Shown piece by piece: positions 14,993 to 60,554 of a stretch of 64,000 nt of DNA. Position 1 is the first letter of the stretch. The number at the start of each line of letters is the position of its first letter. The translations under genes and the position numbers were made by a program. The notes under the pieces were generated by a model. It was not told where the DNA came from and ran no database searches. It worked only from the letters and a program-made list of their open reading frames with translations. The stretch comes from an archaeon (GTDB lineage Archaea > Nanobdellota > Nanobdellia > Pacearchaeales > GW2011-AR1). The stretch spans positions 568 to 64,567 of the forward strand of contig JAUWIJ010000001.1 of assembly GCA_030605415.1 (NCBI GenBank). The letters run 5' to 3'.

Positions 14993-15049
14993 ATTTATTT
15001 ATATGGGCACATGTTTATAAATGTTTGTTTTGTGCCCATATGAGATTTA

Positions 15050-15235
15050 TCATTTAACTTTAAATGTTGCTTGCCAACGGTATTTATAAGCTCCGATGTC
15101 GCCGGCTTTTCGGATTTTGATTTTGCCGATTTTACATAGAGTGTCTTTTTTTATTTCGTCCAAGACTTCTTCCCTTGTCCCAAACCCGTGATAAAAAATT
15201 ACCGTTCCCTTTTTAGAAGTCACTAAAATTACAAA
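15050..15235. repeat. Pseudo-copy (~180 bp, ~85% id) of the trm5 3' end
   Basis: Aligns with 16590-16770 (ttgccaacg.tat.tataagc.ccgat...ttcggattttgatt.tgccgatttta...cttcttcccttgtcccaaacccgtgata.aaaatta). A shorter 45-bp copy lies at 13995-14040. Confidence 0.85.
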
Positions 15236-15289
15236 TATATCTTATTTCTATTAACAATGGAAATTATATGACCAATATCTCCATTCTAA

Positions 15290-20267: not shown

Positions 20268-21782
20268 ATGAAATTAAAAAAAATTAGCAATGTCGAATGG
20301 GAAATTCCTATCGAGGGCAAAATGAATGTTCCGGGAAGAATTTTTGCCAGCGAGGAAATGGTTAAAAATTTTGACGATAAGTGCTTAGAGCAAGTGAAAA
20401 ATGTTGCGAAATTGCCCGGGATTCTGAAAGCAAGTTATGCTATGCCAGATATGCATTTGGGCTACGGTTTTCCAATCGGCGGAGTCGCTGCGTTTGACAT
20501 TGACAAAGGTGTAATTAGTCCGGGTGGCGTCGGCTATGACATTAATTGTTCTGTGCGTTTATTGAAAACGAATTTGAAAGCGGAGGATTTAGTTGGTAAA
20601 GAAAAAGAGTTGGCACATTCGTTGTTTCGCACGGTGCCGTCGGGAATTGGTAGAAAAGGTAAAATTTTATTAGATGCTAAAGAACTAGATGAAGTTCTAA
20701 TCGGCGGGGCACAATGGGCTGTTAAAAAAGGTTATGGACAGAAAGAAGATTGTTTGCATATTGAAGAAGAGGGAAAAATGGAAGGAGCAAATCCGTCGGC
20801 AGTGTCGCAGAGAGCGAAAGGCAGAGGAATGTCTCAACTGGGTTCTCTCGGCGCAGGGAATCATTTTTTGGATGTATTAATTGTTGATGAGATTTTTGAT
20901 GAAAAAGTTGCAAAAGTTTTTGGTCTGGAAATTGGACAGATTGTGATTTTAATTCATTGCGGTTCGAGAGGGCTCGGACATCAGGTCGCGTCAGATTATA
21001 TTAAATTGATGGAAAATAAATATGGTTATCCGGATTTTGACAGAGAGTTAGTAAACGCGCCGATTAAGTCCGAACTCGGACAGAAATATCTGGGAGCGAT
21101 GGCGGCCGCGGCGAACTTTGCATTCGCAAACAAACAAATAATTACTCATTTCGTCCGCGAAAATATGAAACATTATTTTCCAAATTTTAAAGCAGACGTC
21201 GTCTACGATATCTGTCATAACATTGCGAAATTTGAGAAGCACGACGTAGGAACGAAGAACTCAAAACTCAGAGGGTTAGGTGTTAGGAGTTTGGGGTTAG
21301 GGGAGACTACCAACTACCAACTACCAACTATCAACTACCGACATCCGACATCCGACATCCGAAAACAAACGGTTCTCATCATGAGAAAGGGAGCGACCCG
21401 AAGTTTTGGTCCGGGCAGAGAAGAAATCCCAGAAGATTACAGAGAGGTTGGTCAGCCAGTTTTACTACCAGGCTCGATGGGAACACCAAGTTATGTTTTA
21501 TGCGGAACCAAAAAAGCAGAGGAAATTTCTTGGGGCTCGACGGCACACGGAGCAGGTCGGGTCAAAAGCAGAACTCAGGCGCATAGAGATATGAGTTTCA
21601 ACGACGCCAAAAAAGATATGGAAAAGCGGGGCGTGTTTGTTGAGTTCGGAGGACAAAAGGGTTTGGTAGAAGAATCACCATTTTCATACAAAGATGTCGA
21701 CGAGGTTGTCCGAATTTCTGACGAAGCAGGAATTGGAAAGAAAGTTGCGAAGCTGAAACCGGTTATTGTCATAATAGGATAA
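20268..21782 (+). CDS. rtcB: RNA-splicing ligase RtcB with in-frame repeat insertion
   Basis: GGVGYDINCSVR, HCGSRGLGHQ and HNIAKFEKHDV...RKGATR motifs. A ~40-aa insert (GTKNSKLRGLGVRSLGLGETTNYQLPTINYRHPTSDIRKQT) is encoded by a family-A repeat at 21258-21362. Confidence 0.9.
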   Translation: MKLKKISNVEWEIPIEGKMNVPGRIFASEEMVKNFDDKCLEQVKNVAKLPGILKASYAMPDMHLGYGFPIGGVAAFDIDKGVISPGGVGYDINCSVRLLKTNLKAEDLVGKEKELAHSLFRTVPSGIGRKGKILLDAKELDEVLIGGAQWAVKKGYGQKEDCLHIEEEGKMEGANPSAVSQRAKGRGMSQLGSLGAGNHFLDVLIVDEIFDEKVAKVFGLEIGQIVILIHCGSRGLGHQVASDYIKLMENKYGYPDFDRELVNAPIKSELGQKYLGAMAAAANFAFANKQIITHFVRENMKHYFPNFKADVVYDICHNIAKFEKHDVGTKNSKLRGLGVRSLGLGETTNYQLPTINYRHPTSDIRKQTVLIMRKGATRSFGPGREEIPEDYREVGQPVLLPGSMGTPSYVLCGTKKAEEISWGSTAHGAGRVKSRTQAHRDMSFNDAKKDMEKRGVFVEFGGQKGLVEESPFSYKDVDEVVRISDEAGIGKKVAKLKPVIVIIG

Positions 21783-31570: not shown

Positions 31571-32947
31571 ATGGAGAATAACTTTACAAACTTTAATAAA
31601 CCGATTTTTCTTGTCTGGATTATGACCATGAAAGATATTTTAAAAAAAGAGATTGAATTAATTTCACTTTCTCGTGAGGAAATTTTAAAATTATCCAAAG
31701 TTGCTAAAGAATTTATTACCTCTCTTAAAGCGGAGGGGCTTAATGCTTACGTCGGTGGCAGTTTAGCAAAAGGGACTGTAATTAAAGGGGAGGGTTTGTT
31801 TCCGTCTATGGATACTTCCGGAGAACCTCAGGATGTAGATATTTTTGTTGTATTTAATTACAGCGAAGATATTAAAAAACTGGAAGGAATTTTAAAGAAG
31901 ATTAATTTACCTGGCATTTTAAAAAAAGTTCATGGCTCAAGAGATTATTTTCAAATTAATTGTGGCACACCCAAGGGTATACCTCCTGCCCAGATGGCAT
32001 CCACTGACGCGGACAAGGTCGGCAATGCTTTATTAGAAGTAATTCCCGTTGTAAAAAATAACGACCCCGAGCTGGCGGAAAACGTGACAGATGTTTCGCT
32101 TAGTCACGTTAAATATATTGGCGGGGAGATAAAGAAAAATCCGAAAATTGCCGACGATATTAAATTAGCGAAAGCGTTTTGTCGGGCAAATCGTTGCTAC
32201 GGCGCAGAGGGTTATGCCCGAGGTTTTAGTGGCTATTCGCTGGAAGTGTTAGTTATTTATTTTGGCGGATTTGTGAAATTTTTAAAAAGAATTCAAAAAA
32301 AGCGGGTGATTGACCCATTAAAATATTTTAGAAGTGAGCGGGAAATTTTAAGTGAGTTAAATGCGTCGAAACTAAACTGTCCCGTGGTTTTAATTGACCC
32401 GACTTACAAATATAGAAATATTTCAGCAGGATTAGGACTTGAGAGTTTTGAAAGATTTATTGATACCGCTAAGAAATTTTTAAAATCACCGTCGTTGAAG
32501 TTTTTTGAGAAGAAAGATATCGACATTGAAGAAATAAAAAAGTTTGCTAAAAGTAGAAAGGCAAAGTTTATCGAAATAGATTTGAAGACAGATAGACAAG
32601 ATGGAGATATTGCTGGGACGAAGATGAAAAAGTTTTTGGATTTTTTTGCTAAAGAATTGGTTCGAAAACAGCAAAAGGTTCTTAGAAAGGAATTTGATTA
32701 TTTGGGCGGGAAGAAAGCCAAAGGATATTTGGTTGTCGAGGAGAAAATGGAAATTGAGTTACGGGGACCTTCGGTTGGACTAGAAGAAGCGGTTAAAAAT
32801 TTCAAGAAAGCAAAAGGCAGAAAAATCTTTGAAAGAAAAAATTATTGGTGGTGCAAAGAAAAAAGCGGAGTTGCTGAGGTGTTTAAATTGGTTGGAAAAG
32901 TTGAGGGAGAGATGGGAGCGAGGATGGAATTAGGGATTGGGGATTAG
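31571..32947 (+). CDS. cca: CCA-adding tRNA nucleotidyltransferase (archaeal class I), with in-frame insert and repeat-extended C-terminus
   Basis: GGSLAKGT...DVDIFVV NTase motif. 18-aa insert PKGIPPAQMASTDADKVGNA identical to one in GatB. C-terminal 'GARMELGIGD' is encoded by a family-A repeat. Confidence 0.7.
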   Translation: MENNFTNFNKPIFLVWIMTMKDILKKEIELISLSREEILKLSKVAKEFITSLKAEGLNAYVGGSLAKGTVIKGEGLFPSMDTSGEPQDVDIFVVFNYSEDIKKLEGILKKINLPGILKKVHGSRDYFQINCGTPKGIPPAQMASTDADKVGNALLEVIPVVKNNDPELAENVTDVSLSHVKYIGGEIKKNPKIADDIKLAKAFCRANRCYGAEGYARGFSGYSLEVLVIYFGGFVKFLKRIQKKRVIDPLKYFRSEREILSELNASKLNCPVVLIDPTYKYRNISAGLGLESFERFIDTAKKFLKSPSLKFFEKKDIDIEEIKKFAKSRKAKFIEIDLKTDRQDGDIAGTKMKKFLDFFAKELVRKQQKVLRKEFDYLGGKKAKGYLVVEEKMEIELRGPSVGLEEAVKNFKKAKGRKIFERKNYWWCKEKSGVAEVFKLVGKVEGEMGARMELGIGD

Positions 32948-42986: not shown

Positions 42987-43514
42987 ATGAGAAATGTGTT
43001 AGTTAATAATATGCAGAAGGTCAAGAAAGCTGTGCCTGTAATCGAAAATAAAGTTAAAGTTAAAATTGGCTTCGGAAAAGAAACTATTAGTATTAAAAGC
43101 ACAGAGCTAAACGAATATTTAATTGAACAAGTTATTCGGGCGGTTGATTTTGGATTTTGTGCTGATGATGCGTTGTTATTAATTAATGAGGATTTCGTTT
43201 TGGAATTTATTGAGGTTAAAGAACACACAAGACGAAAGAATTTGAAAGATGTCCGGGCGCGATTGATTGGAACGGGGGGAAAAGCGCGGAAGACAATTGA
43301 AAACCTGACCGGAGCGGAAATTGTTATTCATGGAAACACCGTCGGTGTAATCGTTGATTCAATTCATTTGGACGCAGTTGTGCAAGCAATAGAATCATTA
43401 ATTCAGGGAGCCAAACACGGGAATGTTTTTGCGTATTTAGAAAAACAGAACATCTCAAGACGAAAATTTGAGGAAGATGATTTAGGTTTGAAGAAAGGAG
43501 TTAAGACAGATTAA
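42987..43514 (+). CDS. KH-domain RNA-binding protein (Dim2/Pno1-like)
   Basis: Two KH-like segments, including IGTGGKARKTIENLTGAEIVI. Confidence 0.6.
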   Translation: MRNVLVNNMQKVKKAVPVIENKVKVKIGFGKETISIKSTELNEYLIEQVIRAVDFGFCADDALLLINEDFVLEFIEVKEHTRRKNLKDVRARLIGTGGKARKTIENLTGAEIVIHGNTVGVIVDSIHLDAVVQAIESLIQGAKHGNVFAYLEKQNISRRKFEEDDLGLKKGVKTD

Positions 43515-43562: not shown

Positions 43563-43665
43563 GCTTTCGTAGCTCAGCAGGTAGAGCGCACGGCTGTTAC
43601 ATGGGTTTGCTTTGGTAGATTTTGCAGAGACCGTGATGTCGGAGGTTCGAGTCCTCCCGAAAGCG
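43563..43665 (+). tRNA. tRNA-Asn(GUU) with ~30-nt intron in the anticodon loop
   Basis: Hand fold. Acceptor GCTTTCG/CGAAAGC. D arm GCTC-AGCAGGTA-GAGC. Anticodon stem CACGG/CCGTG with loop CTGTTA + intron (43600-43629) + A. T arm GGAGG-TTCGAGT-CCTCC. Discriminator G. No encoded CCA. Confidence 0.75.
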
Positions 43666-44215
43666 TAGCTGAGTCGAACCGACGACGTCGGAGGCGAAAA
43701 CCTTTGCTCGAATTTTGCACAAACAGAAATATATCGCAAAATTTCAGAGTGAAGTTTGAGTAGAGTCCTCCCGAAAGCGTAGCTGAGTAGGACATCGAAC
43801 CGTAGACGTCGGAGGCGAGCAATTTACTCGAATTTTTCTCAACAAGAAAATAAAATCGACAAAATTTCAGTGTGCCCCGCCCAGTTTCAAATATATTTGG
43901 TAGGGTATAGAGTGAAGTTTGAGTAGAGTCCTCCCGAAAGCGTAGCTGAGTAGGACATCGAACCGTAGATTGTCGGTGTGAGTTTCGAGCTGTTTGACTA
44001 AATCCAAATACACAAATTGCTCGGAACGAAAGAAAATCTTTGCTCCTCGCAGAGGTTCCTGTGACCCTTGTGGTTACGAATTTTGTCTAAAAAATAAAAA
44101 TAAAATCGACAAAATTTCAGTATGCCCCGCCCAGTTTCAAATATATTTGGTAGGGTATAGAGTGAAGTTTGAGCAGAGTCCTCCCCGAAGTGTAGTTAAG
44201 TCAAACCGACGACGT
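43666..44215. repeat. Array of three degenerate copies of the tRNA-Asn 3' end with ~240-nt duplicated spacer
   Basis: gagtcctcccgaaagcgtagctgagt recurs at ~43757, ~43927 and ~44175 (last copy degenerate). Spacer 43838-43960 duplicates 44090-44200 (aaaataaaatcgacaaaatttcagt.tgccccgcccagtttcaaatatatttggtagggtatagagtgaagtttgag). Confidence 0.7.
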
Positions 44216-44271
44216 CTAACACCCAAACCAATTTCCAAATAATTTATAAACTTCTTTTTCTATTTTATTCT

Positions 44272-44838
44272 ATGAAATTAGATGATGCAATCAAACAAAG
44301 AAGGAGTGTTCGACGATTTGATTTGAAGAAACCAGATTGGCAGAAAATTATTCGGGCAATTGATTCGGCACGTTTTGCTCCATGTGCGGGGAACCAATTT
44401 GTAACAAAATTTATTTTAGTTTCGGATGAGAAGAAAATAAAAGAATTAGCGACGGCATCTCAGCAAAATTTTGTCGGAACCGCCAAATACATTGTCGTCG
44501 CTATTTCAGACGATTCTAATTTAATTAGGGATTATGACAAGAGGGGAACTCGTTATTGTGCACAACAGGCAGGAGCGGCGATTGAAAATTTTTTATTAGC
44601 CCTAATGGATCAAAAGTTAGTGACGACGTGGGTTGGGCATTTTTATGAAGAACAAGTCAGAAGAACTTTAGGCATTCCCGAAGGTCTACATATTGAAGCA
44701 CTTTTTCCGATTGGCATTGAGACTAAGATAAAAACAAGAGAGAAAAGAAAAATAAATTTAGACCACATTCTTTATTTCGATAAATGGAAGAATAATAAAA
44801 TGGCGCCGATGATTAAAGTAAGTAAGGAAGCTATTTAA
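44272..44838 (+). CDS. Nitroreductase family protein
   Basis: KQRRSVRRF...FAPCAGNQ motif. Confidence 0.7.
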   Translation: MKLDDAIKQRRSVRRFDLKKPDWQKIIRAIDSARFAPCAGNQFVTKFILVSDEKKIKELATASQQNFVGTAKYIVVAISDDSNLIRDYDKRGTRYCAQQAGAAIENFLLALMDQKLVTTWVGHFYEEQVRRTLGIPEGLHIEALFPIGIETKIKTREKRKINLDHILYFDKWKNNKMAPMIKVSKEAI

Positions 44839-49548: not shown

Positions 49549-50973
49549 TCACTCAAAATCCTTCGCTAGTTTAAAAATTAATTCCTCTTGAAAATGTGGT
49601 GCCACAATTTGGAGTCCGACATCTTTGTTATCGAGTTTCCCTACTGGAATTGAGATTGCCGGGAGTCCTGCGATTGAAGCTGGCGTTGTGAAGACATCGT
49701 AAGCATACATATCTTTAACAGAGATTATCTCGCCAATTTTATGTGGAGTTCTCGGAACAGTTGGAAGAATTATAATATCGACCTCTTGGAAAATTTTTTC
49801 AAATTGTTGCTTGATAAAATTTCTTGCTTTTAGCGCCTCTCTATAATACTTCCCCTCGTGCTCGGCTTTCGTAATTTCGGAACCACCAATAATTCTTCTG
49901 ATGACTTCCGGACCCACAACTTCTTCAATTTTTTTTCCAAATCTTCGACCATCAAATTTTCGCGTTGCTGAGAAAAATTCGGTGTAAACAATTATATAAT
50001 AAGTTTGAATTGTAATATCTAACGGCAAATTTATTTTTTTAATTTTCCAATTATTTTGTTTTCCAATTTCTTTTGTTTTAGTTTCGATTAATTCTGCAAT
50101 TTCTTTCGGGCAAAAATCCTGAACATTCACCAATCCGATTACTCCCTTGTGCGGGTCTGAGGTCTGAGGTCTGAGTCGGCGTGCCCCAACCCATTTGAGT
50201 CTGCCCCAACCTGATTCTCTTTCATATTTGTGAGGGTATTCCCTTTTATCTGTGAGGGTATCTGAGGTCTGAGTCGTCTGGTCAAAGTTGTCTTGTCCTT
50301 TAATTATATTGAAAATTAATCTTGCGTCTTCCGGAGTTTGTGTTAACGGTCCGATGCAATCGAAAGACATTGTGTTATCTATTAGCCCGTATCGCGACAC
50401 CGCTCCATAAGTTGGTTTTAGTCCGACGATTCCGCAGTGCGATGCCGGATTTCGAATTGAACCACCAGTATCTGAACCTAACGAAAAATCGCAAAGTTCT
50501 GCAGCAACCGCCGCCGCTGAACCTGAGCTTGTCCCACCCGGAACTAATTCTGGATTTCTAGGATTTTTTGTTGGACCAAATGCCGACGTCTCTCCCGACG
50601 ACCCACAAGCGAACTCGTCCATGTTAACCATTCCTAAAATTATCGCATCCTCGGCTAAGAGTTTGTTTATTACCGTCGCATTATAAGGAGAAACATATCC
50701 TTCCAAAACTTTCGAGCCGCAATTTGTCTCAAGCTCTCTAACTGAAATATTTGATTTTACGGCGAAACATAAACCTGCTAGTTTTCCCGCCGTTCTCTTT
50801 TTTATTCGCTTATCTATTTCTTTTGCCTGCTCAATTGCGTTTTCATTCAAAGATAAAAAAATATTCAAGTCTTTTGTTTTTGGTGTTGCAATTTTTTTAG
50901 AAAAATTCATTAGGTTTTCAACTGCGGTTAGTTTTCCTGATTTGATTTGTTTGAGTTTATGTTTAAGTGTCAT
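49549..50973 (-). CDS. gatA: Glu/Asp-tRNA amidotransferase subunit A (amidase family) with in-frame repeat insertion
   Basis: Amidase signature GGTSSGSAAAVAA. A ~46-aa in-frame insert (…DTLTDKREYPHKYERESGWGRLKWVGARRLRPQTSDPHKG) is encoded by the family-C repeat at 50150-50290. Confidence 0.8.
   Translation of the reverse strand: MTLKHKLKQIKSGKLTAVENLMNFSKKIATPKTKDLNIFLSLNENAIEQAKEIDKRIKKRTAGKLAGLCFAVKSNISVRELETNCGSKVLEGYVSPYNATVINKLLAEDAIILGMVNMDEFACGSSGETSAFGPTKNPRNPELVPGGTSSGSAAAVAAELCDFSLGSDTGGSIRNPASHCGIVGLKPTYGAVSRYGLIDNTMSFDCIGPLTQTPEDARLIFNIIKGQDNFDQTTQTSDTLTDKREYPHKYERESGWGRLKWVGARRLRPQTSDPHKGVIGLVNVQDFCPKEIAELIETKTKEIGKQNNWKIKKINLPLDITIQTYYIIVYTEFFSATRKFDGRRFGKKIEEVVGPEVIRRIIGGSEITKAEHEGKYYREALKARNFIKQQFEKIFQEVDIIILPTVPRTPHKIGEIISVKDMYAYDVFTTPASIAGLPAISIPVGKLDNKDVGLQIVAPHFQEELIFKLAKDFE
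50150..50290. repeat. Family-C repeat (GGTCTGAG tandem + 'ccccaacc' + 'tgtgagggtat' duplications) inside gatA
   Basis: gggtctgaggtctgaggtctgag...ctgtgagggtatctgaggtctgag. In-frame within the amidase ORF. Confidence 0.75.
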
Positions 50974-51700: not shown

Positions 51701-52048
51701 ATGGACGATTGTATTTTTTGTAAGATTGTGGCGGGGGAAATTCCGAGCGAGAAAGTTTTAGAAAGTGAAAATTTTATTGTGGTTAAAGATGCTTTTCCTA
51801 AACTTAACGGACATTCACTCGTAATTTCCAAAAAACATTATGATAGTTTTCTGGATATGCCATCGGAATTGTATGAAGAGTTATTGAAGACAAGTAAGGA
51901 GGCGACTTTAAAAATTGTTAAAGAAGTTGGAGCAGAGGGATTTAATCTTGTCGTAAATAACGGAAGAGTTGCCGGGCAAATTGTTCCACATGTTCACTGG
52001 CATATTTTACCAAGAAAAAAGGACGACGGTTTTGAGTTTGGGGTTTAA
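51701..52048 (+). CDS. HIT-family hydrolase
   Basis: CIFCKI N-terminus. HVHWHILPR histidine triad. Confidence 0.8.
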   Translation: MDDCIFCKIVAGEIPSEKVLESENFIVVKDAFPKLNGHSLVISKKHYDSFLDMPSELYEELLKTSKEATLKIVKEVGAEGFNLVVNNGRVAGQIVPHVHWHILPRKKDDGFEFGV

Positions 52049-53331
52049 GGAATAATTCTATCTCTATCTCTCGGAAACATACAAGCTTCCCGAATATTTG
52101 ATATATCTAAAAGAACTTGTGTAAATCTTTCTATGCCAATAGACCAGCCCGCGTGAGGCGGAGCACCAAATCTGAAACTATTAATGTAAGATTTAAAATC
52201 TTTTAGATTTAGCTTATTAGCTTTCAATCTTTTTTCTAACAACTCAGGAATATGAATCCTCTGTCCACCAGAGCTAATTTCCATCCCCTTGTAAATAGCA
52301 TCAAAACCTTCACTTAATTCCGCATCGGCTTTCTCATCTTTTGGCATAATATAAAATGGCTTCCCCGCCATTGGCCAATCGTAAACAAAAATAAGCGTAT
52401 CAGAATATAATTCACTAAGCTTCTTTTCAGCCTCGCCAGTCAAATCATCATCTCTAATTTTAATTTTGTTTTTATCCATCAAACTCTTTGCCTCCGCAAA
52501 AGTCAGATATTTAACTTTAGGAATTTTTAAGTTGACATTAAGTATTTCCAAATCTTCTTTATTCTTTTTAATGACCTGCTCAACAATATATTTAACGGAG
52601 TCCTCCATTTCTTTCATAACAATTTTAGAATCGGCAAACGCCATTTCGATATCCATCTGTCTGCACTCGTTGAGATGTCTGACCGTATTATGTTTTTCTG
52701 CTCTCCAAACTGGAGTAATTGTAACCATATTTTCCATCGAGCACGCAATCATTTGTTTATACAACTGAGGAGACTGTGCAAGAAAAACATCCTTTTCAAA
52801 ATATTTTGCTTTGAATAATTCTGTTCCGCCCTCGGAGCTGGAGCTAATTATTGAGGGAGGATGAGCATAAACAAAACCCTTGTTTGTAAAATATTCAATG
52901 AATGAACTTCCAACCGTGGACTGTATTTTGAAAATTGCCTGTGTTCTTTGAGAGTGTAAATCAACAGCCCGATTATCCAACCTCAAAGGCAGTTCCGTCT
53001 TTGAATAATCCGAAGTATCAATCGGCAACGGATTTATCGCTTCTGCAATTACCGTTATAGATTCTGGCAAAATTTCTTTCCCGCCGGGTGCCTGTTTGCA
53101 CTCTTTCAATTCTCCAATAACTTCCACAACCGACTCCCTGTTTAAATTATCTAACAACTCAAAAGTTTCGGGATTTGTTTTGCCATCAATTCCAGTTATC
53201 TGAATTCGCCCCGAAATATCTTTAAGAATCAAAAATCTCACTTTTTTCAAATCCCGAGTTTCATGCACCCATCCCTTAACCAAAACCTTCCCGCTTTTCT
53301 CAAACGAATCTTTAATCATTGTTCTTTCCAT
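52045..53331 (-). CDS. aspS: Aspartyl-tRNA synthetase (archaeal class IIb, probably non-discriminating)
   Basis: N-terminal OB fold. Motif 2 VWRAEKHNTVRHLNE. Motif 3 FGAPPHAGWSIGIER. The GatCAB genes nearby imply Asn-tRNA is made by transamidation. Confidence 0.7.
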   Translation of the reverse strand: MERTMIKDSFEKSGKVLVKGWVHETRDLKKVRFLILKDISGRIQITGIDGKTNPETFELLDNLNRESVVEVIGELKECKQAPGGKEILPESITVIAEAINPLPIDTSDYSKTELPLRLDNRAVDLHSQRTQAIFKIQSTVGSSFIEYFTNKGFVYAHPPSIISSSSEGGTELFKAKYFEKDVFLAQSPQLYKQMIACSMENMVTITPVWRAEKHNTVRHLNECRQMDIEMAFADSKIVMKEMEDSVKYIVEQVIKKNKEDLEILNVNLKIPKVKYLTFAEAKSLMDKNKIKIRDDDLTGEAEKKLSELYSDTLIFVYDWPMAGKPFYIMPKDEKADAELSEGFDAIYKGMEISSGGQRIHIPELLEKRLKANKLNLKDFKSYINSFRFGAPPHAGWSIGIERFTQVLLDISNIREACMFPRDRDRIIP

Positions 53332-54108: not shown

Positions 54109-55725
54109 CTAACCACACAATTCCCTCAAAACTTCACTTACTTCTTTCCCAGAAACCTGACCCTTGAATTTTCCCATAACTAATCCCATATAAGCTCCCT
54201 GAGATAATCCCGGTTTTTCTCTAATCAACTTCTCAACTTCTTCTTTCAAATTAATATCAGACTTTTCCATTGCTTCATCCAAAGACATTCCCTGCGCAAT
54301 TTTTTGCATTACCGTTTTCACATCGTTGCTCGAAATGTTTTTACCGACGTGTTCGAGAATCGCCTCAAGAGTGTGAGCATTAAAAATTTCCTCAAGTTCC
54401 CCTTTGGACTTATTTTCCTTTTTCCCAATCTCAGTTTGAAACAGCGTTAAGGATTTTGCGATTAGTTCGTAATTAGAAATTGTTTTAGCGAGAACTTTAA
54501 AATCTTCTACCTTGTTTCGTTTCAAAACCAGTTTCATCAATTCATCATTAAGACCAAATTCGCTCAGATAAGATTTATGTTCGGATGCAAGTTTCGGCAG
54601 ATTCTTTCTCGTTTTGTTAATTAGTTCTCTTGATATTTTCAGGAGCGGAACGTCGGTTTCGGGATACATCCGCGCAGCACCAGGCATTGGTCGGAGGAAT
54701 TCCGTTGTTCCGTCGGGAAGAGCATTTCGAACTTCATTTTTGCAAGATTTTTCTTTAATACGTTTCTGTTGCCTTGCGATTTCCATATCTATAGTTTTTA
54801 TCATCATCTTCGTATCCTGAAAACCCTTAATCTCAACTCGCTTACTTTCCTTAATCGAAATATTAACATCCTGACGAATCGTCCCAATTCCCCGCTTAAT
54901 TTTACATGCCCGCAAAATTTCCCCAATTTTCAAAGCCGCCTCTTTAATTTCTTCCGGCGTATGCATATGAGGACCCGTCGCAATTTCAACCAACGGAATT
55001 CCCAACCTGTCTAACTTGTAAGTTGTAGTTTCTTCATCTCTGGCAACCACTCGCGCAGAATCCTCTTCGAGCATTATCGCATCAATCGGAATTTTCCCCG
55101 ACGAGATTTCAATGTATCCGTCGTGAGCAATCAATACCGTTCGCTGAAACCCCGTTGTATTTGAACCATCAATCACAGTCTTACGCATGACCTGAGCGAC
55201 CGGAAATATTTTACAATTTAAAAGATGCGAAATCTGCAATGCAATTTTCAGAGCTTCCCGATTTATTGAATGTGGTGGTTCCTCGTCAATTTCAACAAGA
55301 CAATTTGTGTCATAAACCTGATAGATAAATTTCTTGTTTTGCAATTTTTCGTGAGCAACCGCTACATCAATTTTACCCGTTTCACCGACGACAGGATTCA
55401 ACGTTCTCTGGATTTCATACTGTGGCTTATCATTCCGCAAAAGACTTGGGCAGTCACAAAAAAGTTTATGCGTGTCCAACTGCTGATGAATTTCCAGCCC
55501 CGATTTCAATCCAACTTTTTTATAGTCGTAAACTGTGGGGGCTGAGGTTGTTTCACTTCCAGAACTGAGACCGCTCCGCTCTGAGAACTTAGACCGCTTT
55601 GCTCTTAGAGATTCTTCCGCTTTCCCGTCCCTGCCCCCGTCGGTTTCCCCTTCTGAGTTCTGAGTACCGAGTTCTGAGTTCTGGACTTCCCGTCCACCGA
55701 GTTCTGAATTCTTGTCGGATTTCAT
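54109..55725 (-). CDS. gatE: Glu-tRNA(Gln) amidotransferase subunit E with repeat-encoded N-terminal extension
   Basis: GLEIHQQLDTHKLFCDC motif. N-terminal ~65 aa (SELGGREVQNSELGTQNSEGETDGGRDG...) is encoded by family-B repeat 55545-55725. Confidence 0.85.
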   Translation of the reverse strand: MKSDKNSELGGREVQNSELGTQNSEGETDGGRDGKAEESLRAKRSKFSERSGLSSGSETTSAPTVYDYKKVGLKSGLEIHQQLDTHKLFCDCPSLLRNDKPQYEIQRTLNPVVGETGKIDVAVAHEKLQNKKFIYQVYDTNCLVEIDEEPPHSINREALKIALQISHLLNCKIFPVAQVMRKTVIDGSNTTGFQRTVLIAHDGYIEISSGKIPIDAIMLEEDSARVVARDEETTTYKLDRLGIPLVEIATGPHMHTPEEIKEAALKIGEILRACKIKRGIGTIRQDVNISIKESKRVEIKGFQDTKMMIKTIDMEIARQQKRIKEKSCKNEVRNALPDGTTEFLRPMPGAARMYPETDVPLLKISRELINKTRKNLPKLASEHKSYLSEFGLNDELMKLVLKRNKVEDFKVLAKTISNYELIAKSLTLFQTEIGKKENKSKGELEEIFNAHTLEAILEHVGKNISSNDVKTVMQKIAQGMSLDEAMEKSDINLKEEVEKLIREKPGLSQGAYMGLVMGKFKGQVSGKEVSEVLRELCG

Positions 55726-56129: not shown

Positions 56130-57755
56130 ATGAACAAGAGAGGAATTTCATTAGTTGTGGCATCGGTTTTGTTGATTTTAATGGTTGTTGTTTTGATTGC
56201 TCTTTTATGGCTTTTTCTTTTGCCCTACTTACAAAAGATTGATCTCGAACAGGATACTGGTATTTTAATAAATTTTGCAGAGGGATACACTTGTTACGAT
56301 GCCAGTAATAATGTTTCTATGGTTCAAATTACCAGAGGGGCGAGTGACACGAATCTTTCTGGTTTGAATGTAGTTTTTTTGAAGGATGGAAACAGTCATA
56401 GTTTTTATCCTGACTCTTTAGACCCCAATTCAAAAAAAGTTTTCACATTCGAAATTCCTGGGGAGATAGATGAAGTTCGAGTTGCACCAATTTTTTTAAA
56501 GGGCGGAAAAGAAGTTTTGGGAGATTTTTCTTCTTCGGGTAAAATTTTTCCATGCAGTAATACTATAACTGTTGCCGATTTACTGTACGAGGATTGTGGG
56601 AATGGGAAGATAGATGATGGCGAAGAATGTGGGGAACCAGGGTTGCCTGAATGTGAATCCGGTAAGAACTGCGAGGGATGTAAGTGTAAAGTAGCGAACT
56701 GTGAGGAATGTACCAGTTGGCAAGATAGTGATTGCGGAGAAGGAGAATGCGCATTAAATCAGATGTATCAGACATGCAATACTCCCCCAGAATGTTCTAT
56801 GGAAACAAGATGTATTGATCATTCTAATTGTTCTTGTAATATTTTATTAAGTCCGGGAACCAATGTTATTTACAATGAAATTTTGAATGTTCCCGATAGT
56901 TCGGAATTAGGATATAATCAATATACGATTTGTTTAAATCCAGGAAATTATTTTGAAAGTTTATTGGGAAGCAATGGTATTTCTAATAAGAGCGGAATTA
57001 GTTTAATAGGTTATAGTGGAAGACCTAAGATTGATTTAATGGAGGAATTAGGGATAAAGTTGATTAATTCTTCGTATATGATTTTAGATAATTTGGAAAT
57101 ATTTAATACCTCAAATCATGGAGTTTATATGTTTAGCGGTTCTAATAATATTCTTAATAATTCTATTATTCATGACACCGGAAATGATGCAATAACTATT
57201 GAACAGGGAGAGAATCATTTGATTAGTTATAATACTGTTTATAATAGCGATGATTCTGCGATTTATGTGAGAAACGGAGAACCAAAAAATGTTGTTTTTA
57301 AGAATAATTATCTTTGGAAAGGAATTGGATTGCAGTATTCAAATGGGATTATTTATATTTCTTCTGATAATATTATTATAGATTATTATTGTAATTATAT
57401 GAATGCTTCTGACGAGGCTGGCGGAGGTTTTGCTGCTGCGATAGGAGTCCACAGAACAGATAATTTACATCTTAATTTTTCTTATAATTATATTGATGAA
57501 AAAATTTCTTATGATGAAACAACTACTAATCTTTATTGGGAAGATTTGTCTGGCTCTTGTGTTCATGGAAATAAAACAGTAATTATTTCCAATTGTTCTG
57601 GAAGTGCTACAATTGGAACATTTATATTTGAAAATAATTATTGTAACGAATTTAATAATCCGGCTTATTGTGATTTTTCTGCGGATAGTGGTAATTATGC
57701 TTCATGGAAGACAGTTTGCGGACACGTTGGAGCTTATGATATGGACTATTCTTAA
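56130..57755 (+). CDS. Secreted protein with prepilin-like N-terminus, Cys-rich repeat and right-handed beta-helix repeats
   Basis: MNKRGISLVVASVLLIL resembles an archaeal class III signal. CGNGKIDDGEECGEPG Cys-rich repeat. NNSIIHDTGNDAITIE...NSDDSAIYV PbH1-like repeats. Confidence 0.5.
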   Translation: MNKRGISLVVASVLLILMVVVLIALLWLFLLPYLQKIDLEQDTGILINFAEGYTCYDASNNVSMVQITRGASDTNLSGLNVVFLKDGNSHSFYPDSLDPNSKKVFTFEIPGEIDEVRVAPIFLKGGKEVLGDFSSSGKIFPCSNTITVADLLYEDCGNGKIDDGEECGEPGLPECESGKNCEGCKCKVANCEECTSWQDSDCGEGECALNQMYQTCNTPPECSMETRCIDHSNCSCNILLSPGTNVIYNEILNVPDSSELGYNQYTICLNPGNYFESLLGSNGISNKSGISLIGYSGRPKIDLMEELGIKLINSSYMILDNLEIFNTSNHGVYMFSGSNNILNNSIIHDTGNDAITIEQGENHLISYNTVYNSDDSAIYVRNGEPKNVVFKNNYLWKGIGLQYSNGIIYISSDNIIIDYYCNYMNASDEAGGGFAAAIGVHRTDNLHLNFSYNYIDEKISYDETTTNLYWEDLSGSCVHGNKTVIISNCSGSATIGTFIFENNYCNEFNNPAYCDFSADSGNYASWKTVCGHVGAYDMDYS

Positions 57756-58982
57756 AATAGATTCTCCAACATCTTTTCTTTTACATTCCATTTCTTGTGT
57801 CCGAGCACCCACCCAAGTTTTATCAAAGCAGTTTCTGAAAGCATTCCCCCGAGAAAAATAATTCCAGTTTTTTGTAACTCTCGTCCTGTAGAATACACAT
57901 TTGGATTAAGTTGTCCGTAAATAGTTTGTGGCGTTGCGCAAATTGTGATTCCGTTTTGAATCGCCTTTTTAATTTTTGGAAGCCAATTTGTCGAGGATTG
58001 TTTTCCCGGGACTTGTCCTAATCCAGTGACTTCTAAAATTATTCCTTTGTATCCTTGTTGTTCATAATATTCTAAAATTGCTGGGTCTTGTCCTGGGTGA
58101 ATTTTTATTAGCGTAACTTTATCTGAAAATTTTATATCTATTTTTGATTTGTTATTCGAACGAGCATTGAAGGTTTTTAATATATTTATTTTATCTGGGG
58201 TGATTTCTGCAATAGGAGTGTCGTTAATTATTTTGAAAGCGTCTCGTTTTGAGGTGTGCATTTTTCTGACTTTGGTTGCGGGCATTGCTAAACAAATTTC
58301 ATCGTTTGTATTTTTGTGTCCGACTAGTGCGATTTCTGCGATGTCTGATGTTGCGTATTTTGCTGAGCAAATTAAGTTGAGGGCGGCGTCGGTTGAGGCT
58401 CGGTCGATGGAACGTTGGGAATATGTTAGGGCAATTGGTTTGTTGAGTTTTTGAATGAAAAAAGATAATGCCGCGGCGGTGTAATGCAAAGTGTCGGTTC
58501 CGTGTGTGATAATTATTCCCTTGATTGATTTGTCGTTTAAATATAGTTCACAAGTTTCGGCTAATCTTTTCCAATCTTTTGGATCCATGTCCTCAGAGAA
58601 TTTCATAAACGGGCTGACAATTATTGGATTGCAAATGTTTTTTATTTCTGGCGCGATGTCTAATATTGCTTCTTTATCGGTCGAGATTACTCCACCCGTT
58701 TTTGAATCAAGCCGAGAAGAAATTGTTCCGCCTGTAATGACAAAAACTACGTTGGGTAATTTTTGTAGGACGCTTCGCTGGTAGGACGCTTCGCTGGTAG
58801 GACGCTTTCTCCAGAATTGTTGCATCAAGAATTTCACCTTCCCGTATTCCAATGTTATAACCACTTGGTAATTTTAGGAGAATTATTTCAGGGTCGTGAG
58901 ACTCAAGAATATATCCCTCCCACGTTCTATTCTTGGTTTGGATTTTTACTTTGTCTCCAGGTGCGAATGCTTTTATTTCCAT
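57752..58982 (-). pseudogene. gatD: Glu-tRNA(Gln) amidotransferase subunit D, split across two frames at a 16-nt tandem repeat
   Basis: ORF 58982-58707 encodes the GatD N-terminal domain (…LLKLPSGYNIGI…). ORF 58864-57752 encodes the asparaginase-like body (VVFVITGGTISS). The frames differ and the junction coincides with (gtaggacgcttcgctg)x2.7 at 58765-58807. Confidence 0.7.
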
Positions 58983-59090: not shown

Positions 59091-60554
59091 ATGAAAACCA
59101 AAACATTTCCCATAAAAATTGGCTTAGAAATCCACGGATATTTAGACACGAAAGAAAAGTTATTTTGTATGTGCTTAGTTTCGGGGTGTCGGTGTTCGGG
59201 GGTCGGAGGGTCGGAAGATATACCTAACTCGAGAATCTGCCCAATTTGCACAGGGACGCCGGGGTCAAAACCAATGGCACCTAATATTGAAGCAGTTAAA
59301 AAAATGATTCAGATTGCATTGGTCTTTGGGTCGAAAATTAGTTTTGAAACGACCTGGCAGAGGAAACATTATAACTGGGCAGATTTGCCGAAGGGATATC
59401 AGACGACAATTTCCGGAGCGCACGCGACGCCAAATGCTGTCGGGGGAAAATTTAAAGGGATTAATCTGACTGAGTTGCATCTTGAGGAAGACCCGGCGCA
59501 GTGGAATCCGGATTCGGGGAAAATTAATTATAATCGTTCGGGGTTACCCCTGATTGAGATTGTGACCGAGCCGGAGTTTTCGGATTCGGAGCAGGTTGTT
59601 GAGTGGCTAAAGAGTTTAATTTTATCTTTGAGTTATATTAAGGCAGTTCGAAAGAACGCGGGAATCAAAGTTGATGTAAATATTTCGACTTACGGCGAGC
59701 GGGTTGAGATGAAGAATTTGAATTCGTTGGAGAAGATTCGGAAAGCGATTGATTATGAAATTTTGAGACAAGTTGAAGCTAACGAGAAAGGAGAAGTTCA
59801 GAAAATGGAGACACTTGCGTTTGATGAGAAACTTGGCAAGACAATTAAGATGAGGTCGAAGGAAGGGGCGGCGGATTATAGGTTTATTCCCGACCCTGAT
59901 TTGCTTACGATTAAAATAGATAAAAAAATGGTCAATAAAATTAAATCGGAATTACCTGAGATGCCTGAAGTTAAATTGGCTAAACTACTGAAGACACATA
60001 AAGTTGACAAAAAGAATGCTGAGGTATTGACAAGAAATTTAGAACTGGTTGAGTTTTTTGAAAAATTAGCTATGATTACTGCACCCAAGGGTGTACCTCC
60101 TGCCCAGATGGCATCCGCTAAAGCGGACAAGGTCGGCAATGTGAATAAAAATTTGTCGTGGGTGACGATTGAATTATTGAGGGTTCTAAATTATAATAAA
60201 AAAACTTTGGAGGATGAGGATGTTGAGATTTTACCTGAGCATTTGGCGGAGTTGATTAAGGCGGTTGAATCGGGGAAGATTACGGTTTTGAAAGGGAAAC
60301 AGATTATGAATGATTTTGTGCCGAAGTCGTTTTCGTTGAAGGAGCATAAGGGAGAGATTGGGAATATTGATGAGGCTGCGATTGAGAATTTGTGTAGGCA
60401 GGTGATTGATGAGAATTTAAAAGTTGTTGATGAGTATAAATCTGGGAAGGGTGCGTCGTTGAATTATTTGATTGGGCAGGTTATGAGGTTGTCGGAGAGA
60501 CGGGCAGATTTTAAAGTTGCTGGAGAGATTTTGAAGAGGTTGATTGGGAATTGA
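59091..60554 (+). CDS. gatB: Asp/Glu-tRNA amidotransferase subunit B with in-frame 18-aa insert
   Basis: GLEIHGYLDTKEKLFCMC...ICPICTGTPG...DLPKGYQ GatB/E motifs. Insert PKGVPPAQMASAKADKVGNV at 60082-60144. Confidence 0.8.
   Translation: MKTKTFPIKIGLEIHGYLDTKEKLFCMCLVSGCRCSGVGGSEDIPNSRICPICTGTPGSKPMAPNIEAVKKMIQIALVFGSKISFETTWQRKHYNWADLPKGYQTTISGAHATPNAVGGKFKGINLTELHLEEDPAQWNPDSGKINYNRSGLPLIEIVTEPEFSDSEQVVEWLKSLILSLSYIKAVRKNAGIKVDVNISTYGERVEMKNLNSLEKIRKAIDYEILRQVEANEKGEVQKMETLAFDEKLGKTIKMRSKEGAADYRFIPDPDLLTIKIDKKMVNKIKSELPEMPEVKLAKLLKTHKVDKKNAEVLTRNLELVEFFEKLAMITAPKGVPPAQMASAKADKVGNVNKNLSWVTIELLRVLNYNKKTLEDEDVEILPEHLAELIKAVESGKITVLKGKQIMNDFVPKSFSLKEHKGEIGNIDEAAIENLCRQVIDENLKVVDEYKSGKGASLNYLIGQVMRLSERRADFKVAGEILKRLIGN

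Follow-up and report, generated by a model that had tools for sequence, protein, structure and literature searches.

What are the short non-coding stretches that follow the tRNA-Asn gene in this Pacearchaeales genome, each of them closed by a copy of the end of that gene? The first-pass annotation of the window (the whole 64,000-nt stretch of DNA analysed here) had described a complete tRNA-Asn with a 30-nt anticodon-loop intron and, behind it, an att-duplication pattern, left either by serial integration and deletion or by very small tRNA-targeting elements. The tRNA gene was borne out by Rfam, where RF00005 matched 43563-43665 on the plus strand with 59.5 bits (E 2.4e-10) over the entire model (1-71), interrupted by 30 inserted nucleotides between positions 37 and 38. 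RNAfold returned a cloverleaf with an intron hairpin, and reading by hand placed the splice sites in two 3-nt bulges, U36 A37/C38 and A66 G67/A68 (slash at the cut), with a helix of 4 bp between them (CUGU:GCAG, C32-U35 with G62-G65). The intron is a canonical bulge-helix-bulge (BHB) motif at 37/38. The anticodon is GTT, the discriminator is G and CCA is not encoded; the tRNA-Asn of one relative, L011, has the same exons without an intron. ARAGORN, the one tool that made no call for this gene, recovered as run zero tRNAs from the whole 64-kb window and was also blind to other intron-containing tRNA-Asn genes in related loci. This miss is a limit of the tool with introns and no evidence against tRNA-Asn.

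For comparison we used 29 species-representative loci and 11 true metagenome loci. All related loci (denoted by L numbers; 431 kb in total) were retrieved via tRNA-Asn or its neighbour gene. The KH-domain gene on the upstream side of the window array has 450 homologues and precedes tRNA-Asn in most related loci. The nitroreductase gene on the downstream side follows the array or a bare tRNA in L014, L027, L034, L037, L052, L067 and L076. The fetched loci contain only two other tRNA genes, and the tRNA-Asn gene of the clade is found with BHB introns, group I introns, 5′-fragment insertions and 3′ cassette arrays. The coordinates of the features in the window are collected in Table 1.

Table 1. 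Features of the tRNA-Asn locus in the window (positions are those of the 64,000-nt stretch).
Feature	Position	Strand	Basis or remark
KH-domain (KRR1/PNO1-like) gene, upstream flank	42987-43514	+	Pfam PF22891/PF21800
tRNA-Asn(GTT)	exon 1 43563-43599, BHB intron 43600-43629, exon 2 43630-43665	+	Rfam, RNAfold, hand reading
Repeat copy 1, the tRNA's own G57-G73	43649-43665 (26 nt to 43674)	+	exact match
Unit 1, A-type, 97 nt	43666-43762	+	covariance model R2 122.8 bits, consensus fold
Repeat copy 2	43763-43779 (26-mer to 43788)	+	exact 17-mer
Unit 2, A-type, 146 nt	43780-43925	+	R2 60.5 bits over 43784-43942
Repeat copy 3	43926-43942 (26-mer to 43951)	+	exact 17-mer
Unit 3, expanded A-type, 233 nt	43943-44175	+	R2 34.3 bits over 44084-44192
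Repeat copy 4, degenerate, GAGTCCTCCCCGAAGTG	44176-44192	+	distal copy, also in three other assemblies
Fourth unit, only its start (trailer + CAAACCGACGACGTC; break within the palindrome)	44193-44216	+	41-nt similarity to 43649-43689
Nitroreductase-family gene, downstream flank	44272-44838	+	Pfam PF00881

Exact copies of the 26-mer GAGTCCTCCCGAAAGCGTAGCTGAGT stand at 43649, 43763 and 43926; there are no further ones in the 64 kb, and 100 shuffles gave 0. The repeat extends from G57 in the T-loop to exactly the discriminator G73 (17 nt; 26 nt with the trailer). The three additional copies of the 3′ segment counted at first, the last of them degenerate, were all recovered, the nearest at 43763 instead of about 43757, and the spacers, put at 80-200 nt, are somewhat longer (97, 146 and 233 nt between the 17-nt cores). 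We observe a direct repeat of the 3′ part of a tRNA with the intact gene at one end, as in insertions of the integrase type. The three proximal copies are identical to each other. The similarity of the fourth extends to 44216 (41 nt, 85 %, against 43649-43689), and this copy has three mismatches to the window's own tRNA-Asn allele but only one to the other allele, CCCCGAAGCG, as found in the close relative L067. The most distal fragment has an older tRNA allele, and this gradient suggests that units were added next to the tRNA. A 61-nt exact repeat (43746-43806 and 43909-43969) contains copies 2 and 3, and the segments 43847-43951 and 44097-44201 are 93 % identical. Independent short-read assemblies of the same organism back both branches, as one contig (L001) ends in copy 2 and another (L002) begins in copy 3; the distal copy was seen again in two other samples. 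The exact count of unit-2-type copies thus rests on the window's own assembly.

The window array consists of three non-coding hairpin modules in one direction, each closed by the 17-base copy of the tRNA 3′ end, and no conserved ORF was found in the units. Unit 1 starts with the trailer TAGCTGAGT and continues with the palindrome CCGAC-GAC-GTCGG (43679-43691), the T-arm-like GTCGGAGG-CGA (43687-43697), a long hairpin (43698-43757) and GAGTA (43758-43762). Its minimum free energy is -29.1 kcal/mol, with a z of -2.08 on the plus strand versus -0.23 on the minus strand, and it shares about 96 % identity with unit 1 of L011. In unit 2 the trailer contains an additional AGGACAT, and the 3′ arm of the hairpin is enlarged by 38 GC-rich nucleotides (43871-43908), an insertion for which the related loci contain no homologue. 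The same insertion is present in unit 3 (44121-44158), together with an extra stem (43982-43990 paired with 44019-44027) and a second insertion of roughly 32 nt in 44046-44077 (coordinates approximate). The left part of unit 3 is common to L034, L038, L046 and L067. Truncated array ends like the one that closes the window array occur in L020, L029, L044, L051 and L067. The sequence CAAAATTTCAG appears three times, at 43737, 43860 and 44110 (0.16 expected). It is the 3′ arm of the hairpin, located 15-55 nt from the tRNA fragment, and does not abut the repeat; the motif caaaatttcag, initially taken for an element-side att arm, is one hairpin arm instead.

The A-type family and at least three other families are found behind tRNA-Asn in many Woese- and Pacearchaeota species, and the same 90-105-nt unit recurs in many of them. 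The A-type fold, a T-stem-like helix plus a long hairpin, is backed by compensatory base changes, which affect 6 of the 26 pairs of the consensus; four G.U pairs are invariant. In the B-type, 94.5 % of cells are paired and compensatory double changes were seen at 12 of the 22 pairs. None of 500 shuffles reached the observed values, shifted registers gave 34-58 %, and the GGAGG of this family pairs with the CCTCC of the tRNA fragment. C-type units contain cUUCGg tetraloops. Stem sequences are identical between species with flanking DNA about 75-80 % identical. On the tRNA strand, all 12 A-type units are more stable (by 1.8-13.7 kcal/mol), and the B and C types display no strand preference in folding stability. 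The block common to all module families ends exactly at G73, and everything beyond is family-specific; such a common end would be predicted if a rebuilt tRNA is selected for. The left edge differs between families: it is G57 in the A and B types, about T54 in the C type and C61 in gene-bearing inserts.

Rfam 15 recognised only the tRNA itself when searched with the units, and nothing else fell below E = 0.26. Matches to the A and B covariance models on both strands of the 431 kb were confined to arrays 3′ of tRNA-Asn on the tRNA strand, except for weak partial matches within the 3′ part of the tRNA itself and a single marginal match in L015, on the strand opposite to its tRNA and 400 nt upstream of it. 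As the loci were retrieved via tRNA-Asn or its neighbour, the restriction to this tRNA holds only within those 431 kb.

Across the comparison set, tRNA-Asn is often followed at 90-240 nt by that species' own 3′-end copy, whose core differs between species (..CTCTCCGAAGCG, ..CCCCGAAGCG, ..CTCAAAAGCG, ..CCCGAAAGCG). The clearest case of turnover is the pair L037 and L051, which have one mismatch in 4253 nt upstream including the tRNA (99.976 %) and differ from the base after G73. One of them continues with a B-type unit, a fragment, an A+B hybrid, a fragment and the nitroreductase gene, the other with a C-type unit, a fragment, an A-type unit, a fragment and other DNA. In L011, the species representative nearest to the window in nucleotide sequence, an A-type unit is followed by a B-type unit and a glycosyltransferase gene, and the array ends in a fragment of a foreign allele. 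The tRNA-Asn loci of L071, L016, L013 and L032 are module-free. Three independent hybrid junctions of the form GAGyAGA/body were identified (L037, L038 and L046), with breakpoints at the 'GA' of GGAGGCGA and GAGTAGA(GTCC). The segment of tRNA and array is inverted in L046 and L057, and L015 has an inverted fragment. The same site also takes up gene-bearing insertions. In L022, the tRNA is separated from a 14-nt fragment by an insert of 1 kb that contains a 301-aa ORF, with TAAGTTTAAG inverted near both ends of the insert in addition to the 14-nt repeat. In strain L060 the break falls exactly at the T-stem; a test of the tail past this breakpoint for a local inversion gave no match within the sequence covered. 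A possible terminator T-run stands right after the tRNA and before the module in several species (L007, L038).

The tRNA-Asn 3′ end is a real recombination hot spot in the clade. The att-duplication pattern proposed at the outset is supported, with repeats that run from the T-loop to the very last base of the tRNA. Relatives do carry such modules, but this does not amount to the conserved operon leader that the first-pass annotation had named as a refutation of its own reading: the number, type and order of modules vary, even when strains are nearly identical, and some species are without them. The same families in other numbers and orders in relatives indicate a fast-changing insertion hot spot and not the debris of large elements. 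Regarding excision and occupancy, near-identical strains differ in modules and the sites of some species are empty; the junction of an excised circle would be indistinguishable from a tandem array.

We searched the array and its surroundings for an enzyme and for free copies of the modules. The initial impression that neither cargo nor integrase is present holds at and near the array: no recombinase was found among the 39 ORFs of at least 150 aa in the window, nor in the Pfam annotation of L001 and L002, about 10 kb on each side. The Pfam annotation of the loci from six relative protein look-ups lists none either; no integrase, transposase or Cas1 was found in the window or in the annotated parts of the related loci. 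Virus contigs, scanned with the 26-mer and 17-mer, the right-end junction and the left ends of the A and B types, gave only two chance matches in coding regions, and BLAST of the array against phage and plasmid collections resulted in no match. No free, viral or plasmid copy of the modules emerged, and no long element with module ends was found in these collections or among the 40 related loci.

We consider the chances about even that the window units are miniature non-autonomous site-specific insertion modules. The version of this reading that involves an integrase and an attachment site is, for us, slightly less probable than that. Of the two origins offered at first, very small tRNA-targeting elements comes closest to the data, which are conserved non-coding modules at tRNA-Asn. 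Fragments of tRNA genes normally mark the insertion of mobile elements (bioRxiv 10.1101/2022.07.05.498093). Each module would bring or create the tRNA segment from T-loop G57 to G73, and an incoming one would carry its own copy of the tRNA 3′ end, so that the gene is rebuilt. The crossover, presumably of the integrase/attachment-site type, may fall at the G57-A58 'GA' of the T-loop. The older 3′ end would be displaced downstream, leaving the newest module next to the tRNA and the oldest and most decayed farthest away. Such a module would be little beyond an attachment site, with its family-specific trailer, a short palindrome, the mimic of the T-arm 5′ half (GTCGGAGG-CGA), an imperfect hairpin of ~60 nt and GAGTA. 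Because it encodes nothing, it would have to be moved by an enzyme whose gene lies elsewhere, or be passed on when strains exchange the locus by homologous recombination. If the T-arm mimic recombined with a fragment downstream of it, the stretch in between would be lost and hybrid modules would result. Independent excision and transfer of single modules is doubtful, since double-stranded circles of 114-250 bp recombine poorly. The foreign-allele fragment of L011 does not fit a simple series of integrations unless an extra horizontal exchange took place.

The conserved structure, which in the A-type is preferentially that of the tRNA strand, suggests that the modules may be kept for a function as RNA and not for mobility. 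In its full form, this explanation takes the units as structured RNA genes or processing modules made with or behind tRNA-Asn, each imitating the T-arm and the 3′ strand of the acceptor, with a hairpin that extends from the T-loop. They would be maintained by selection, and unequal crossing-over together with homologous exchange would lengthen, shorten or reshuffle the arrays without a dedicated recombinase. It is rather unlikely in our view, and it draws on the covariation of the A and B types (6/26 and 12/22 pairs), the 12/12 A-type units favouring the tRNA strand, the cUUCGg tetraloops of the C-type, the stems that stay identical across species despite flanks of only ~75-80 % identity and the location of all copies on the tRNA strand. 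However, the units are absent in many species and strains and swapped between near-identical strains, the B and C types lack a strand preference, a possible terminator separates tRNA and module in L007 and L038, and Rfam has no match; covarying complementarity would be equally expected of inverted repeats bound by a protein. An RNA function and mobility are compatible and not exclusive. A staggered cut by a casposase/Cas1-like or another integrase, duplicating 17 bp at each insertion with the T-arm as 'leader', would explain why the duplicate always bears the host's own allele, and the one-directional array and the allele gradient of the window fit it as well. The casposon of Aciduliprofundum requires the T-psi-C-loop segment of tRNA-Pro in its target and forms tandem arrays with the new copy inserted upstream (PMC5137440). 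The 17 bp are inside the casposon range of 15 +/- 2, and the L022 insert with its inverted TAAGTTTAAG and 14-nt repeat likewise speaks for this mechanism. Nevertheless we find this mechanism improbable, since a ruler-type cut does not predict an end at G73 in every family or a left edge that varies by family, only 5 bp of the casposon duplication fall within its tRNA, the modules lack inverted repeats at their termini because the hairpin is internal, and no Cas1 was seen.

The other origin proposed at first, by which full-size elements entered tRNA-Asn serially, lost their interiors and left their two ends between att copies, has about the same small probability. The att-like repeats, the one-directional array, the gene-bearing insertions at the same site in relatives and the truncated units at array ends would all be in line with such scars. 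Yet a 90-105-nt unit common to many species would not arise from independent deletions, nor would a left and a right half that pair with each other and co-vary; the spacers are conserved hairpin families with compensatory changes across species. No long element with module ends was found in the 40 related loci or the collections of viruses, phages and plasmids, and no coding remnant is left, loop-length differences of 3 or 4 nt ruling out a conserved frame. Plain local tandem duplication or replication slippage downstream of the tRNA, or an artefact of repeat assembly, could account for the 105-nt block (93 %) and the 61-nt exact repeat common to units 2 and 3, at which the short-read assemblies break. 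We deem this very improbable, as units 1, 2 and 3 are diverged relatives and not fresh copies, the same families appear in dozens of independent assemblies and species, and an independent assembly contains the repeat with both of its branches. Slippage would also leave unexplained why different families have only the tRNA segment in common.

Several other identities were considered for the units and rejected. A decayed integrase gene of the SSV type, with the att site inside it, would suit the open minus strand (an 82-aa ORF), but loop differences of 3 or 4 nt and indels break the frame. For C/D-box and H/ACA guide RNAs, we saw by eye no C box and no pseudouridylation pocket, and Rfam was silent. 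We dismissed the idea of a tRNA 3′ half from which a T-loop intron could be spliced, as there is no BHB at the hairpin base (an asymmetric loop, GA versus GAGyAGA) and the rebuilt loop would be without U54 and U55. A mini-helix of trailer and acceptor 3′ strand holds only in the TAGCTTT clade, with no co-variation in other alleles.

Among known systems, the insertion modules that we favour resemble tRNA-targeting integrative elements in the direct repeat of the tRNA 3′ part from the T-loop to the gene end, in the functional gene at one end with displaced fragments downstream, and in several insertions stacked at one tRNA with inversions tied to the site. Williams is said to have described, in 2002, a T-loop sublocation class of tRNA-gene attachment sites. 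The differences are in size (97-233 nt instead of 9-23 kb or more), in the missing integrase or any gene, and in the interior, which here is a conserved hairpin plus a T-arm mimic whose families recur across many species. In Pyrococcus yayanosii, PYG1 covers 21.4 kb between 44-bp repeats (bioRxiv 10.1101/2022.07.05.498093), and integrase-driven inversions between tRNA attachment sites are reported for Thermococcales (PMC5495485). Att-bounded non-autonomous units in tandem also link the window array to CIMEs, from which it differs in having structured units of about 100 nt. The CIMEs of Streptococcus are decayed integrative conjugative elements, kilobases long and still gene-carrying; in CIMEs and accretion arrays the att-bounded units are non-autonomous, stand in tandem at one site and obtain the integrase from elsewhere. 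Small non-coding elements with long imperfect hairpins, in which the structure is kept better than the loop sequence, are known as MITEs, as the PATEs of haloarchaea and as attC sites of integrons and CALINs, and MITE-type and attC arrays occur without a recombinase gene nearby. The window units are alike in all these respects, but unlike MITEs they stand at a single locus and are flanked by 17 nt of tRNA instead of duplications of 2-10 bp. Many dispersed copies, as expected of MITEs, are not seen in the 64-kb window or the 431 kb, apart from the weak and marginal matches mentioned above, and by eye no attC core (GTTRRRY / RYYYAAC; R''/R') is present at the hairpin base.

Casposon arrays and the leader-repeat logic of CRISPR share with this locus the tRNA 3′ end as a target with the T-psi-C region as recognition 'leader' (PMC5137440), the short duplication of ~15 bp between units and, presumably, the addition of new units on the tRNA (leader) side. 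Unlike in casposons, no Cas1 is present and the repeat lies wholly inside the tRNA, ending at G73. Neither a Cas1 casposase nor a family B polymerase occurs in the window or the annotated related loci. In place of terminal inverted repeats inside the ~15-bp duplication, each unit has termini (TAGCTGAGT... and ...TTTGAGTA) of which neither is the inverted form of the other, and the inverted repeat of the unit begins about 30 nt inside its left end. The 'spacers' come from few conserved families and are not captured foreign DNA. Regarding RNA, 3′ETS-leuZ of E. coli is a functional RNA derived from the 3′ external transcribed spacer of a tRNA. The units are similarly structured, directly 3′ of a tRNA and on its strand, and could be freed by tRNA 3′ processing; they differ from 3′ETS RNAs in that they end in a copy of the tRNA 3′ end and are repeated and strain-variable.

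More tentatively, and as a reading that is less likely than not, the units would be an undescribed class of miniature, self-contained 'attachment-site cassettes'. These would combine a T-arm mimic with a hairpin out of the T-loop, use only the T-loop-to-3′-end part of tRNA-Asn in Woese- and Pacearchaeota, build up in one direction via some recombinase, as casposons or CRISPR repeats do, and possibly double as structured RNAs. If so, the tRNA-Asn gene would be a hot spot for multiple parasites, given the introns of both kinds, 5′-fragment insertions and 3′ arrays seen there. On the practical side, such arrays break short-read assemblies, and an intron-containing tRNA of this kind escapes a default run of ARAGORN. 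An array of ~100-nt cassettes that varies between strains is also a marker of strain history which can be read directly from metagenomes. Very little is known of mobile DNA and site-specific recombination in DPANN archaea, and the tRNA-Asn T-arm as a defined DNA target, with the modules as defined substrates, offers a way to look for the recombinase responsible. The locus provides a natural case for an old proposal by which the disruption of tRNA genes, seen as introns, split genes and fragments, is driven by the mobile elements that attack them.

The tRNA-Asn gene lies in a DPANN archaeon window of low GC content (about 35%), among genes for aCPSF1, a proteasome subunit, aIF2-beta, aIF1A, a KH-domain protein, FtsZ and GatA. 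The first-pass annotation described the gene as interrupted by an intron in the anticodon loop, and this was confirmed by the Rfam match, a predicted cloverleaf fold and our manual reading of the splice sites. In the Rfam alignment the 30-nt insertion separates position 37 from position 38. On manual inspection, GCAG at the intron 3′ end forms pairs with C32-U35, and each splice site falls in a 3-nt bulge, the two bulges being on opposite strands; this is the canonical bulge-helix-bulge (BHB) motif. The tRNA has the anticodon GTT and the discriminator base G, and no CCA is encoded. ARAGORN as run reported zero tRNAs across the window and also overlooked the intron-bearing tRNA-Asn genes of six related loci (L010, L017, L027, L028, L033 and L038). 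Their BHB-position introns measure 29-57 nt and differ in sequence between species, one intron family being common to L010, L017 and L028; the exon part is identical across these loci by construction, as it served as the retrieval query. The 5′ part of the L038 tRNA appears aberrant and a second disruption is possible. Most species have no intron in tRNA-Asn, which suggests that intron gain and loss at this gene are frequent. L011 is the species representative whose nucleotide sequence is nearest to the window's (flanking genes 81-95% identical); its tRNA-Asn has the same exons and lacks the intron.

The array behind the tRNA consists of three non-coding modules (units 1-3), each terminated by a copy of the tRNA 3′ end. 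The recurrence of this end, noted earlier, holds: the exact 26-mer is found at 43649, 43763 and 43926 (chance expectation 0), with a degenerate fourth copy at 44176, and the rest of the 64 kb contains no sequence similar to the repeats. A 61-nt exact repeat encloses copies 2 and 3 and is the precise point at which short-read assemblies of this organism break; these assemblies contain both exits of the repeat, and the distal copy was confirmed by two further samples. The repeat features of the window are real, and the copy number of unit 2 alone rests on the window's own assembly.

Scanning a genome collection with tRNA exon 1 gave 29 species representatives, and loci retrieved in this way were labelled Woesearchaeota, Pacearchaeota or Nanoarchaeota. 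Metagenomes were scanned with the junction of a unit's right end and the fragment (the displaced tRNA 3′-end copy), which resulted in 16 loci, 11 true and five chance matches in high-GC coding DNA; strain series were obtained by look-ups via the upstream KH protein. Many related loci carry one to three short units after tRNA-Asn, each closed by a copy of the species' own tRNA 3′ end. The units belong to families A to D (see table), none of which matched an Rfam family. The sole segment common to all families is G57-G73 of the tRNA, from the T-loop to the discriminator base, and the sequence beyond G73 differs by family. Units 2 and 3 of the window hold a 38-nt insertion in the identical hairpin bulge, with no homologue in any related locus.

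Features of the window and of related loci (window coordinates unless a locus is named)
Feature	Location	Strand	Description
tRNA-Asn	43563-43665	+	Rfam tRNA model, end-to-end match, 59.5 bits
A-type unit	Window units 1-3; L007, L011, L020, L036, L038, L041, L046, L051		...CGAACCG..GAC..GTCGGAGGCGAA-loop-TTTGCTCGAATTTT...AAAATTyAGAGTGAA....GAGyA
B-type unit	L011, L021, L022, L034, L036, L037, L039, L044, L067, L068		...GGAGGCGAA..TTCGCTTyGAGCAA...GCGAAATGCAAATT.TGAGyA
C-type unit	L015, L027, L046, L051		cUUCGg hairpins; repeat begins at T-stem
D-type unit	L008; similar sequence after tRNA in L026, L031, L068		Contains GAACCTGAGGTTCC
38-nt insertion	43871-43908, 44121-44158		GC-rich, TGTGCCCCGCCCAGTTTCAAATATATTTGGTAGGGTAT; palindrome CAAATATATTTG at centre
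Unit end truncated in palindrome	44193-44216; L020, L029, L044, L051, L067		CCGAC-GAC-GTCGG
Trailer 7-mer AGGACAT	43789-43795, 43952-43958; L011 unit 2; L039 unit 2		Just before CGAACCG
Gene-bearing insertion	L022 (oriented) 4064-5107		1 kb, between tRNA and 14-nt fragment
tRNA-Asn 5′ fragment	L036 (oriented) 1818-1853		tRNA-Asn nt 1-36
tRNA-Asn 5′ fragment	L068 6625-6650		D-arm and anticodon-stem strand
Promoter-region duplication	L068 6520-6550 = 6652-6682		32 nt
tRNA-Asn with group I intron, L067	7183-7760 of JBDRJI010000030.1		Intron: Rfam RF00028, 65.1 bits, E 8e-16
tRNA-Asn with group I intron, L076	4570-4905		Intron resembles that of L067
Trm5-like methyltransferase, RtcB splicing ligase, CCA-adding enzyme, GatA	16589-17503, 20268-21782, 31571-32947, 49549-50973		tRNA-related genes
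AspRS-type synthetase, two GatB/E-family proteins, GatD-like asparaginase	about 52045-53331, 54109-55725, 57752-58864, 59091-60554		tRNA-related genes
Intein in 870-aa ORF	9814-12426		LAGLIDADG homing endonuclease domain; Pfam PF14890, PF14528
Fic/DOC-family protein and AAA_14/DUF4143 ATPase	14081-16579		
ORFs around the Fic/DOC and AAA_14/DUF4143 genes	12563-13987, 17546-18271		No Pfam match

RNAalifold folded the A-type body into a single long imperfect hairpin of 26 pairs, six of them with compensatory double changes, and with four invariant G.U pairs. The motif caaaatttcag, proposed in the first-pass annotation as the element-side att arm, turned out to be the 3′ arm of this hairpin. The fold of window unit 1 reaches -29.1 kcal/mol, with z -2.08 on the + strand and -0.23 on the - strand. 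The tRNA strand gives the more stable fold in each of the 12 A-type units, a preference not seen in B and C units. In the B-type consensus, GGAGG:CCTCC closes the unit, so that an upstream T-stem mimic pairs with the fragment; inside this stem follow an asymmetric loop (GA vs GAGyAGA) and a long hairpin. Double changes occur in 12 of the 22 B-type pairs, and 94.5% of the cells are paired, against 82.5% in shuffles (observed values reached by 0/500) and 34-58% in a shifted-register control. The left part of the unit, GTCGGAGG(T)CGA, is similar to tRNA positions 46-58, and the unit thus resembles a T-arm with a hairpin inserted in its loop, followed by the acceptor 3′ strand.

Regarding turnover, two loci from different samples (L037 and L051) differ at one base in 4253 nt upstream, tRNA included, and diverge from the first base past G73. 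One of the pair continues with a B-type unit, fragment, A+B hybrid, fragment and the nitroreductase gene; the other with a C-type unit, fragment, A-type unit, fragment, truncated B-type unit and other DNA. The order in L011 is A-type, fragment, B-type, a fragment of a different tRNA-Asn allele and a glycosyltransferase gene absent from the window. In four loci (L071, L016, L013 and L032) the tRNA is bare: a T-run comes next, and both unit and CGAACCGAC trailer are missing, which indicates that the trailer is part of the inserted unit. The species of L014 and L052 retains a 39-nt remnant only, identical in the loci shown, which represent 23 contigs. At three independent hybrid junctions (L037, L038 and L046), GAGyAGA is joined directly to a body that normally follows GGAGGCGA, placing the breakpoints at the 'GA' that matches T-loop G57-A58. 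Arrays often end in a unit truncated within a small palindrome.

Copies 1-3 have the window's present allele, CCCGAAAGCG. Copy 4 has three mismatches to it and one to CCCCGAAGCG, the allele of L067, a locus with a KH protein 91% identical to that of the window; at this distal position L067 also carries the beginning of unit 3. Judged from these sequences, the distal part would be the oldest and the array would have grown by additions on the tRNA side.

Insertions with genes occupy the same site as the modules in L022 and L060. The L022 insertion encodes a 301-aa ORF with a hydrophobic C-terminus and no Pfam match; the 10-mer TAAGTTTAAG is inverted near both its ends, a transposon-like layout. 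Strain L060 breaks at ...CGCTTTCGGGAGG|, followed by unrelated DNA with TrmB and methyltransferase genes. Relative to the KH and nitroreductase genes, the segment with tRNA-Asn and array is inverted in L046 and in the L057 series (L057-L066); in the L057 series a duplicated piece of the KH gene 3′ end adjoins the segment. An inverted tRNA 3′-end copy is present in L015, 398 nt upstream. Fragments of the tRNA-Asn 5′ part lie 100-170 nt upstream of the intact gene in L036 and L068, in the latter with a duplication of the promoter region, which suggests a second kind of insertion that duplicates the 5′ part of the gene.

The search for an integrase, a transposase or Cas1 was negative in three sets: the window's 39 ORFs of 150 aa or longer, two Pfam-annotated short-read contigs of the same organism (L001 and L002, ~10 kb each side of the array), and the Pfam-annotated loci from six relative protein look-ups. 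Virus contigs, phage records and plasmids gave no match to the array. Covariance models of A and B, searched against 431 kb, matched in arrays behind tRNA-Asn on the tRNA strand; the only other matches were weak partial ones to the 3′ part of the tRNA itself and a single marginal one on the opposite strand, upstream of the tRNA in L015.

A group I intron lies between T35 and T36 of tRNA-Asn in two close relatives, L067 and L076/L077, whose KH proteins share 91% and 85% identity, respectively, with that of the window. The L067 intron has an ORF of 135 aa, putatively HNH-like by sequence motifs, and the L076/L077 intron, judged by its similarity in sequence to that of L067, appears ORF-less. A tRNA host looks new for archaea, because all 39 group I introns in a 2018 survey were in rRNA genes (PMC6125680). 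The first 7 nt of the L067 and L076 introns, after ...GCTGT, are AGGACAT, a 7-mer also present in trailers (as AAGACAT in L067 units); the match may be chance, or a tRNA copy with an intron may be the source of the units' left parts. Many genes of the window are tRNA-related, and those of the tRNA-dependent Asn/Gln pathway lie within about 15 kb of tRNA-Asn, a linkage kept in relatives. The window also encodes an intein, and its GC content falls to 0.29 at 14-16 kb, so the Fic/DOC-AAA_14 region may be a small variable island.

The repeat anatomy, hot-spot behaviour and allele gradient are consistent with repeated site-specific insertion at the tRNA 3′ end. Fragments of tRNA genes are a known by-product of element integration, and in the described archaeal cases repeats of about 44 bp flank elements of 9-23 kb (bioRxiv 10.1101/2022.07.05.498093). 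For DPANN archaea, a full-text literature search found no account of structured ~100-nt units arrayed like cassettes behind a single tRNA. The earlier suggestion that the units are deletion scars was rejected, since pairing with covariation links the two halves of a unit and different species share the same ~100-nt unit. Another candidate is a casposase-type target duplication by a staggered cut measured from the T-arm. The casposon is a close functional analogue: 15 bp are duplicated, the T-psi-C loop serves as leader and, in tandem arrays, the new copy lies upstream (PMC5137440). A staggered cut of this kind does not predict a block ending at the last base of the tRNA in all families. We favour the attachment-site (integrase-type) version because the shared block ends exactly at this base in every family, as selection for an element-borne copy that restores the gene predicts. 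The units may persist through mobility, an RNA function or both. Excision of single units as double-stranded circles is doubtful because the period is only 114-250 bp, and homologous recombination of the locus, or movement with larger neighbours, may be more important.
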